Source of the DNA: Escherichia coli
GTDB taxonomy: Bacteria > Pseudomonadota > Gammaproteobacteria > Enterobacterales > Enterobacteriaceae
Direction: 5' to 3' (one strand)
Assembly (NCBI RefSeq): GCF_003334335.1
Contig: NZ_QOWQ01000189.1
Length of the DNA: 447 nucleotides
Part shown: one piece after another, positions 244-447 of the stretch
How the letters are laid out: each line of letters begins with the position of its first letter
How positions within the stretch are numbered: position 1 is the stretch's first letter
Translations under genes and position numbers: made by a program
Notes under the pieces: generated by a model
Database searches by the model: none
What the model saw: the letters and a program-made list of their open reading frames with translations, nothing else
Told to the model about the DNA's origin: nothing

Positions 244-447
244 TCAGCGCATACTCTCCAGCAGCGTTTCAGCCATCACCCACAATGCGCGGTTGAGCTT
301 AATGTCGGTGTCGATGCTGTGAATGGCACGGGTATGGATACGTTTTCCTCTGGCACTGCGACCGGAAATCCCGCCTTTCAGCATATTCTCCTGAATGGTC
401 TGATAAGCACTCCACAGGTCCTTACCGTAATCCTCCCGGCGTCGTGG
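244..447 (-). CDS. Hypothetical protein, C-terminal 67 codons plus stop; 3'-partial in window (N-terminus lies beyond position 447); family not recognised
   Basis: Minus-strand frame is open from the window edge to TGA (complement of 244-246). Translation: PRRREDYGKDLWSAYQTIQENMLKGGISGRSARGKRIHTRAIHSIDTDIKLNRALWVMAETLLESMR*. The sequence is protein-like with mixed composition and a basic tract (GRSARGKRIHTR). It is in the same orientation as the downstream antirestriction gene, 91 bp upstream of it. The other two minus frames are interrupted by stops. Confidence 0.65.
   Translation of the reverse strand, partial: PRRREDYGKDLWSAYQTIQENMLKGGISGRSARGKRIHTRAIHSIDTDIKLNRALWVMAETLLESMR

Follow-up and report, generated by a model that had tools for sequence, protein, structure and literature searches.

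Members of the DUF932 protein family have been described from the leading region of the F plasmid and from the CP4-57 and CP4-6 islands of Escherichia coli K-12. The F member is YgeB (YubP, gene 32), a 273-residue protein encoded at L003:12439–13260. By placing the published recombineering primers (Couturier et al. 2023; PMC9849209) on the F sequence, we identified the DUF932 gene as ygeB, a 95-residue ORF as ygeA and an SLT transglycosylase gene as ygfA. The order in F is Frpo1, ygeA, ygeB, then the oppositely oriented ygfA, and oriT; in F and its IncF relatives, the DUF932 gene is the last gene transcribed towards oriT and the second from it. The same leading region also carries ssb, a DUF905 gene, a ParB-like gene, psiB, hok and an ArdB-like antirestriction gene.

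Upon T-strand entry, the single-stranded DNA promoter Frpo1 drives ygeA and ygeB (PMC9849209). In K-12 × K-12 matings, deletion of Frpo1 lowered the transconjugant frequency from 93% to 25%, deletion of Frpo1-ygeA-ygeB gave 33% transconjugants, and deletion of ygeA alone gave 3.9%, while a single ygeB deletion could not be constructed in F (PMC9849209). Part of the Frpo1 phenotype may be due to priming of complementary-strand synthesis, independently of the gene products. In F, the ArdB-like gene lies 7 kb from ygeB under its own single-stranded DNA promoter, ssp2, whose effect is confined to recipients that are non-isogenic or restriction-proficient (bioRxiv 10.64898/2026.01.09.698686). Samuel et al. 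2024 ranked the family (YubP, UPF0380, YgeB, PF06067; 4661 members) as the third largest of those enriched in leading regions, and labelled it putative anti-restriction (PMC11541004).

The K-12 members, YfjQ (CP4-57) and YafZ (CP4-6), belong to UPF0380 and are chromosomal. Here we analyse a 447-nt window of E. coli DNA that carries the 3' end of a DUF932 gene beside the 5' end of an antirestriction gene. As an annotated yfjQ/yafZ paralogue, the window itself adds nothing new, and the general interest lies in the DUF932 family. DUF932 is a worthwhile target: in F-type resistance plasmids its gene lies close to oriT and is expressed while the entering DNA is still single-stranded, and identifying what the protein does would supply a missing part of the account of how such plasmids become established in new hosts.

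The window carries the end of a DUF932 gene

The DUF932 gene occupies positions 244–447 of the minus strand, where it contributes codons 206–272 of 272 with the TGA stop at 246–244, and it extends past the window edge at 447. The reverse complement of 244–447 is free of internal stops and translates to PRRREDYGKDLWSAYQTIQENMLKGGISGRSARGKRIHTRAIHSIDTDIKLNRALWVMAETLLESMR (67 residues and the stop codon), as the first-pass annotation had read it when it took this segment for the C-terminal 67 residues of a gene. In strain NCTC86, the full gene has 272 codons (L001:11386–12204).

The first-pass annotation could place these residues in no known family, but even the 67-residue fragment matches Pfam DUF932 (E 1.5e-4, model positions 182–227 of 227). 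The full protein matches PF06067 with E 7.3e-51 (residues 36–261 on model positions 1–227 of 227) and PHROG 12094 with E 5e-127. Of the two families offered as guesses, DUF932 or DUF905, the first is the right one, and DUF905 turned out to be the gene directly upstream in the island. The protein is not a member of the family of TIGR03299 ('phage/plasmid-like protein') and PHROG 1221, as it scores 17 bits against a curated cut-off of 110.7. A representative search with the DUF932 protein returned 5324 clusters (50% identity) at E < 1e-3.

Identity of the protein is 73.5% to YfjQ and 74.3% to YafZ over 272 residues, and 61% to F YgeB. YfjQ and YafZ equal it in length and in C-terminal motifs, and YgeB has the same motifs. 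The family-conserved motifs H82, E99, N104-S-H-D-G, C123-x-N125-G and H140 are all present, as are the C-terminal motifs PRRxxD, LW, QENxxxGG, TR and LNRxLW. Judged by sequence comparison, the window gene is a known, annotated paralogue of yfjQ, yafZ and ygeB, from a family that is very common on mobile elements.

To place the window within the species, we searched it by megablast against 5426 complete E. coli genomes. It matches 4464 of them, at a median of 3 places per genome, and many chromosomes contain it at 100% identity, annotated as 'DUF932 domain-containing protein' and 'antirestriction protein'. A place covering at least 80% of the window, and with it the junction between the two genes, was found in 3970 of the 4472 matching records; these records are copies of one island family. 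The plus strand of the window also contains an ORF of 39 codons from an ATG (177–296), which runs antisense across the spacer into the 3' end of the DUF932 gene and is most likely a chance shadow ORF. Shadow ORFs lying over DUF932 genes also clustered artefactually in our neighbour analysis (clusters 1, 2, 3, 9 and 14).

A compact predicted fold with conserved polar residues

We built an AF2 model of the full protein on 100 homologues (mean pLDDT 93.2, pTM 0.89). The model is a compact two-domain fold, the same as that predicted for other DUF932 members. Its N-terminal alpha/beta domain contains strands 61–68, 82–88, 96–104, 112–120, 125–128 and 136–138; its C-terminal helical domain contains helices 144–157, 159–171, 176–191, 216–229 and 250–271 with a small hairpin at 233–243. 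The window codes for the final two long helices (216–229 and 250–271) and the hairpin. Structure searches of the PDB and a sample of the AFDB found nothing outside DUF932 that resembles the fold.

Conservation was assessed from the 100 homologues and from a second set that extends to phage homologues only 25% identical. P29, Q68, H82, N104, G108, G117, C123, N125, H140, L174, Q224, G230 and N257 are invariant, and Y44, T49, G60, R72, E99, R120, G126, R208, E225, R245 and W261 are nearly so. The conserved motifs encoded in the window are PRRxxD, LW, QENxxxGG, TR and LNRxLW, all on the minus strand. R207-R208-R209-E210-D211, the family motif PRRxxD in the alignments, is encoded at 430–444, with R208 kept in 99% and D211 in 94% of the 100 homologues. 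Q224-E225-N226 to G230-G231, the motif QENxxxGG at the end of helix 216–229 by alignment and model, is encoded at 370–393, and Q224 and G230 are unchanged even in phage homologues of 25% identity. T244-R245 and the C-terminal helix 250–271 with its LNRALW motif, placed by the same two sources, are encoded at 247–333; within LNRALW, N257 is invariant and W261 is found in 93%.

Between the last two of these segments lies the basic tract to which the first-pass annotation had drawn attention, residues 231–243 (GISGRSARGKRIH), encoded at 334–372 on the minus strand and delimited by the alignment, by the model strands 233–235 and 241–243 and by the charge profile. The fragment was described as rich in Arg, Lys and His, and it is moderately basic: of its 67 residues, 9 are R, 4 are K and 2 are H, its net charge is +5, and R, K and H make up 22% of it versus 16% of the other 205 residues. 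The whole protein is likewise basic, however, with a pI of 9.3. Nor is there a basic tail. The run GRSARGKRIH is internal, 30–40 residues ahead of the C terminus, between GG (230–231) and TR (244–245), and the protein ends in the long helix 250–271, with a net charge of −1 in the 15-residue windows of its last 22 residues. The run is also the least conserved part of the window; its loop varies in sequence and length across DUF932, and some homologues from phages and metagenomes have ~4 to 10 residues inserted there. We therefore rejected the idea of a basic C-terminal tail as a nucleic-acid-binding appendage, since the run is an internal variable hairpin and the terminus a conserved helix.

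From their conservation and from strand topology, the conserved polar residues are predicted to cluster in a pocket where the sheet meets the helical domain. An HNH or His-Me-finger reading of H106...N125...H140, considered for its motif spacing, was dropped because H106 is not invariant and no such fold was matched.

We compared the gene across 80 Enterobacterales loci collected by peptide patterns. Purifying selection was evident: median dN/dS against the query was 0.12 over the full gene and 0.24 within the segment that the window covers, and the closest pair gave 0.013/0.169 = 0.077. The ORF is intact in 77 of 79 orthologues, from many genera.

The gene probably heads a transcription unit in a CP4-like island

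The antirestriction gene is of the ArdB/KlcA type and occupies positions 1–152 of the minus strand, from its ATG (152–150) through the first 50 full codons, with a ribosome-binding site AAGGA at 165–161. In full it encodes 161 residues, which match PHROG 10132 ('anti-restriction protein') with E 1.4e-63 and are 70–71% identical to K-12 YfjX (LfgA) and YafX, and 31% identical to the F ArdB-like protein. Both genes lie on the minus strand and are separated by a spacer of 91 nt (153–243, from the ORF ends), in agreement with the first-pass annotation, which had the DUF932 gene co-directional with the antirestriction gene and 91 bp upstream of it. That annotation had also noted that no intrinsic terminator intervenes, and a consensus scan of the window found neither a terminator-like nor a promoter-like site. 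With co-directional genes, a short spacer and no such match between them, the shared transcript that it considered plausible is also what we would predict. An RNA element or attenuator in the spacer was considered and rejected, as Rfam gave only a chance-level match and the predicted RNA fold was no better than that of shuffled sequence (z = 0.17).

In NCTC86, the host element is a CP4-like integrative island adjoining a tRNA-Ser gene (L001). The island begins with a GTPase pseudogene, Ag43, a hypothetical gene, IrmA, DUF905, DUF932 and the antirestriction gene, and continues with RadC/JAB, DUF987, a hypothetical gene, YeeU/CbeA, CbtA, DUF5983, DUF957 and DUF4942. On the gene strand, which is the + strand of L001, a strong terminator-like hairpin (13-bp stem, T-run) stands between DUF905 and DUF932 (L001:11307–11336), and the next strong one (11-bp stem, T-rich tail) follows DUF957 (L001:15841–15867), with only weak terminator-like matches between the two. 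DUF932 thus probably heads a predicted transcription unit of ~4.5 kb, comprising DUF932, the antirestriction gene, RadC/JAB, DUF987, a gene for a 227-residue hypothetical protein, the CbeA/CbtA toxin–antitoxin genes, DUF5983 and DUF957. By analogy, this unit probably resembles a leading-region cassette carried on a chromosomal element.

In the current K-12 RefSeq annotation (L094:12920–13869), yfjX has become lfgA (putative antirestriction) and yfjY has become lfgB (CP4-57 prophage protease). Cleavage of the antitoxin MqsA is reported for LfgB (PMC10846083), so that the RadC/JAB gene, the second gene after DUF932, has a K-12 paralogue with published protease activity.

No sigma-70-like promoter was detected in the ~50 nt before the DUF932 gene when L001 was scanned. 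In E. coli Nissle, transcription of yfjQ has been measured, and fluC (Ag43) and yfjQ increase together (PMC11056357), which suggests read-through into yfjQ from upstream.

CP4-type islands are cryptic, and the island copy of DUF932 could be a functionless relic of a decayed mobile element. Besides the cryptic state of the islands, the GTPase pseudogene and the lack of a detected promoter of its own in the scan would fit such a relic. We consider this reading highly improbable: the low dN/dS values (median 0.12, closest pair 0.077) and the intact ORFs across many genera argue against decay, every family-invariant residue is retained, and the yfjQ transcription measured in Nissle (PMC11056357) points the same way.

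Like the window's island, the K-12 yfjQ and yafZ islands carry RadC/JAB, DUF987 and a CbtA-type toxin–antitoxin pair downstream on the same strand. They differ upstream: yfjQ and yafZ stand directly behind the GTPase genes yfjP and ykfA, whereas the window's gene stands behind DUF905 and abuts the antirestriction gene. The gap between the YfjP/YkfA-type GTPase gene and DUF932 is 91 nt in both K-12 islands (L094, L095), and such a GTPase gene also directly precedes DUF932 in 11 of 80 more distant loci (cluster 13, for example L142:6598–7470). In the window's island, Ag43, a large hypothetical gene, IrmA and DUF905 lie between the GTPase pseudogene and DUF932, a layout that suggests insertion of cargo.

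Direct adjacency to the antirestriction gene is limited to some islands

Conservation of the gene pair was counted in the 70 Enterobacterales loci that extend far enough downstream. An antirestriction gene is directly adjacent to DUF932 in 24 of these (downstream in 13, upstream in 11 from Providencia and Proteus), lies more than 500 nt away (2.4–4.1 kb) in 9, and has no homologue within 7 kb in the remaining 37. RadC/JAB follows within 7 kb downstream in 46 of the 70. In the 80 more distant loci, antirestriction genes were found in 8 and RadC in 13. The distance between DUF932 and the antirestriction gene is 6.4 kb in K-12 CP4-57 (yfjQ), 2 kb in CP4-6 (yafZ) and 7 kb in F. Although common to the E. 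coli copies, the pair does not appear to be a conserved unit across genomes, a point for which the first-pass annotation had proposed a check. Direct adjacency is typical of CP4-like islands only, and because it occurs in only some loci while the K-12 and F genes are kilobases apart, DUF932 and the antirestriction gene share a loose cassette in CP4-type islands and are not an obligate pair.

In the 11 Providencia and Proteus loci (L057, L059, L063–L066, L072, L073, L076, L077 and L082), the two genes stand in the opposite order to that in E. coli: the antirestriction homologue is 20–111 nt upstream of DUF932, and neither RadC nor CbtA is found within 7 kb.

The neighbourhood raises the possibility that DUF932 is itself an anti-restriction or anti-defence protein, a partner of its ArdB/KlcA-type neighbour that directly inhibits host defence. 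The adjacency in CP4-like islands (24 of the 70 Enterobacterales loci; 3970 of the 4472 E. coli records) is in its favour, as are the putative anti-restriction label of Samuel et al. 2024 and the position of phage DUF932 genes within arrays of small early genes. In addition, a DUF932 gene in an integrated plasmid of Variovorax was repeatedly mutated after phage selection (bioRxiv 10.1101/2025.06.20.660599). Against a direct inhibitor, adjacency is missing from most loci outside CP4-type islands, and a basic pI of 9.3 sets the protein apart from DNA mimics, which are acidic.

Comparison with known antirestriction proteins likewise gave no support. PDB sequence and profile searches and PDB/AFDB fold searches showed no similarity to ArdA, ArdB, KlcA, Ocr, ArdC or DarA. 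Homology to DarA or ArdB, considered in view of the label in PMC11541004, was rejected on hhalign comparisons, which gave probabilities of 0.1% for P1 DarA and 0.8% for the ArdB-like neighbour, and membership of a known defence system was rejected for want of a PADLOC match. DUF932 and the ArdB/KlcA neighbour share an element, a strand and probably a transcript, and both kinds of gene occur in plasmid leading regions, but the proteins have no sequence, profile or fold match and differ in size, charge and architecture. Finally, the Frpo1 and ygeA phenotypes in F were seen in K-12 × K-12 matings, in which loss of ssp2 has no effect. Phenotypes in isogenic matings point to a role independent of the restriction barrier. 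On balance we regard a direct anti-defence function of DUF932 as unlikely.

A possible early role on incoming DNA

In PLSDB, at least 5000 plasmids carry a homologue at ~62% identity; among the matches listed, 4450 are conjugative, and most are from Escherichia or Klebsiella. F ygeB has the features of a leading-region early gene, being close to oriT and behind a Frpo-type promoter, on the strand transcribable from the incoming T-strand; the island copy differs. No oriT or tra genes were found within 12 kb of the island DUF932, and the island has no Frpo-like element, as F and island DNA are similar only inside the coding region. F ygeB is preceded by Frpo1 and ygeA and followed by a palindromic terminator, whereas the island copy has neither ygeA nor Frpo-like DNA. 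The palindrome, AAGTAAAGCCCCGAAATTTTTCGGGGCTTTACTT (L003:13258–13310), directly follows the ygeB stop and is near-perfect, and for this reason the homology arm of primer OL514 maps on both F strands. From its sequence, it is likely to be a bidirectional terminator between ygeB and the convergent ygfA.

The first-pass annotation had proposed an accessory or anti-defence partner by association with other anti-defence or establishment genes. This association gains some support from the wider context (F YgeB lies near oriT and is driven by Frpo1, and the family is enriched in leading regions, with a putative anti-restriction label), while a direct anti-defence role is weakened by the weak conservation of the pair, by the isogenic-mating phenotype in F and by the lack of similarity to known inhibitors. 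Compact in its predicted fold, under purifying selection and widespread in conjugative plasmids, CP4-like islands and phages, the DUF932 protein may be an early establishment factor of mobile DNA that acts through its conserved polar pocket, a reading to which we give about even chances. Under this proposal, mobile DNA would make the protein early after cell entry. The pocket would be lined by Q68, H82, E99, N104, C123, N125 and H140 from the beta-sheet domain and by R208, Q224, E225, R245 and N257 from the helical domain whose end is encoded in the window. An enzyme, or a specific binder of nucleic acid or of a host factor, would fit better than a DNA-mimic inhibitor because the DUF932 protein is basic, and the variable basic hairpin may add non-specific contact with nucleic acid. 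Within a non-mobile cryptic element, chromosomal copies might act in another way or have no role at all.

More speculatively, DUF932 could be a new kind of early-acting enzyme, with an invariant His/Cys/Asn/His/Gln pocket in a fold that has no relative in the PDB or the AFDB sample, for processing incoming DNA or disarming a host factor. We put this forward as a doubtful but consequential possibility: if true, conjugative plasmids, CP4-like islands and phages would use the enzyme in the first minutes after DNA entry, and its activity would first have shown itself in the F data, through the strong ygeA phenotype and the failure to obtain a ygeB deletion.

The same F data can be read differently, with DUF932 as a harmful protein that a small partner (YgeA in F) keeps in balance, the two forming a toxin–antitoxin-like or tightly regulated pair that favours retention of the element. 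Loss of ygeA (3.9% transconjugants) is worse than loss of Frpo1-ygeA-ygeB (33%), and ygeB alone could not be deleted (PMC9849209). The island also has a CbtA/CbeA toxin–antitoxin pair downstream, and 29 of 80 viral-contig loci have a 97-residue ORF (PHROG 6244) just ahead of DUF932. However, no YgeA homologue was found in the island or in 78 non-F-like Enterobacterales loci, the 95-residue F ORF matching only the F-like loci L080 and L084, and the 97-residue family has no similarity to YgeA. The gene directly upstream also varies (DUF905, GTPase or antirestriction), and the matching places in E. coli genomes (median 3) have no dedicated partner. We consider such a pair improbable, and return to the early establishment factor as the preferred reading.

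DUF932 in phages and metagenomes

We found DUF932 in 27 phage records and 391 IMG/VR stretches. The phages are jumbo myoviruses of the GAP32, CBB and XbC2 types, in which DUF932 lies within arrays of small hypothetical genes, and a few others. The 80 IMG/VR loci (L103–L182) are mostly temperate-phage-like contigs with DUF932 between the terminase genes on one side and primase-helicase, RusA and HNH-like genes on the other. Phage DUF932 genes thus sit among early or accessory genes.

In 29 of these 80 loci, DUF932 is closely preceded on its own strand by the 97-residue ORF of PHROG 6244, with a median gap of 273 nt (for example, L128:6368–6661). The ORF has no detectable similarity to F YgeA or to DUF905, and it could be a recurrent small partner of DUF932. 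The idea of a YgeA-like partner in island or phage loci was rejected, no such partner being found and this common upstream ORF being unrelated to YgeA.

A DNA ligase gene lies 0.5–4 kb downstream of DUF932 in three phage-like metagenomic contigs (L004:7271–9202, L006:4371–5255 and L096:8570–10426); the ligase is NAD-dependent in two and ATP-dependent in one. A general association with DNA ligase was rejected, as ligase is absent from the 25 most recurrent ORF clusters of the 80 IMG/VR loci. Three contigs from metagenome-assembled genomes labelled Clostridiales, Lachnospiraceae and Collinsella (L014, L080 and L081) carry a DUF932 gene of the enterobacterial-island or F-plasmid kind, either 74% identical to the query or 97–99% identical to F ygeB and accompanied by ygeA. 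They are most likely enterobacterial or plasmid contigs mis-binned into Firmicutes and Actinobacteria bins.
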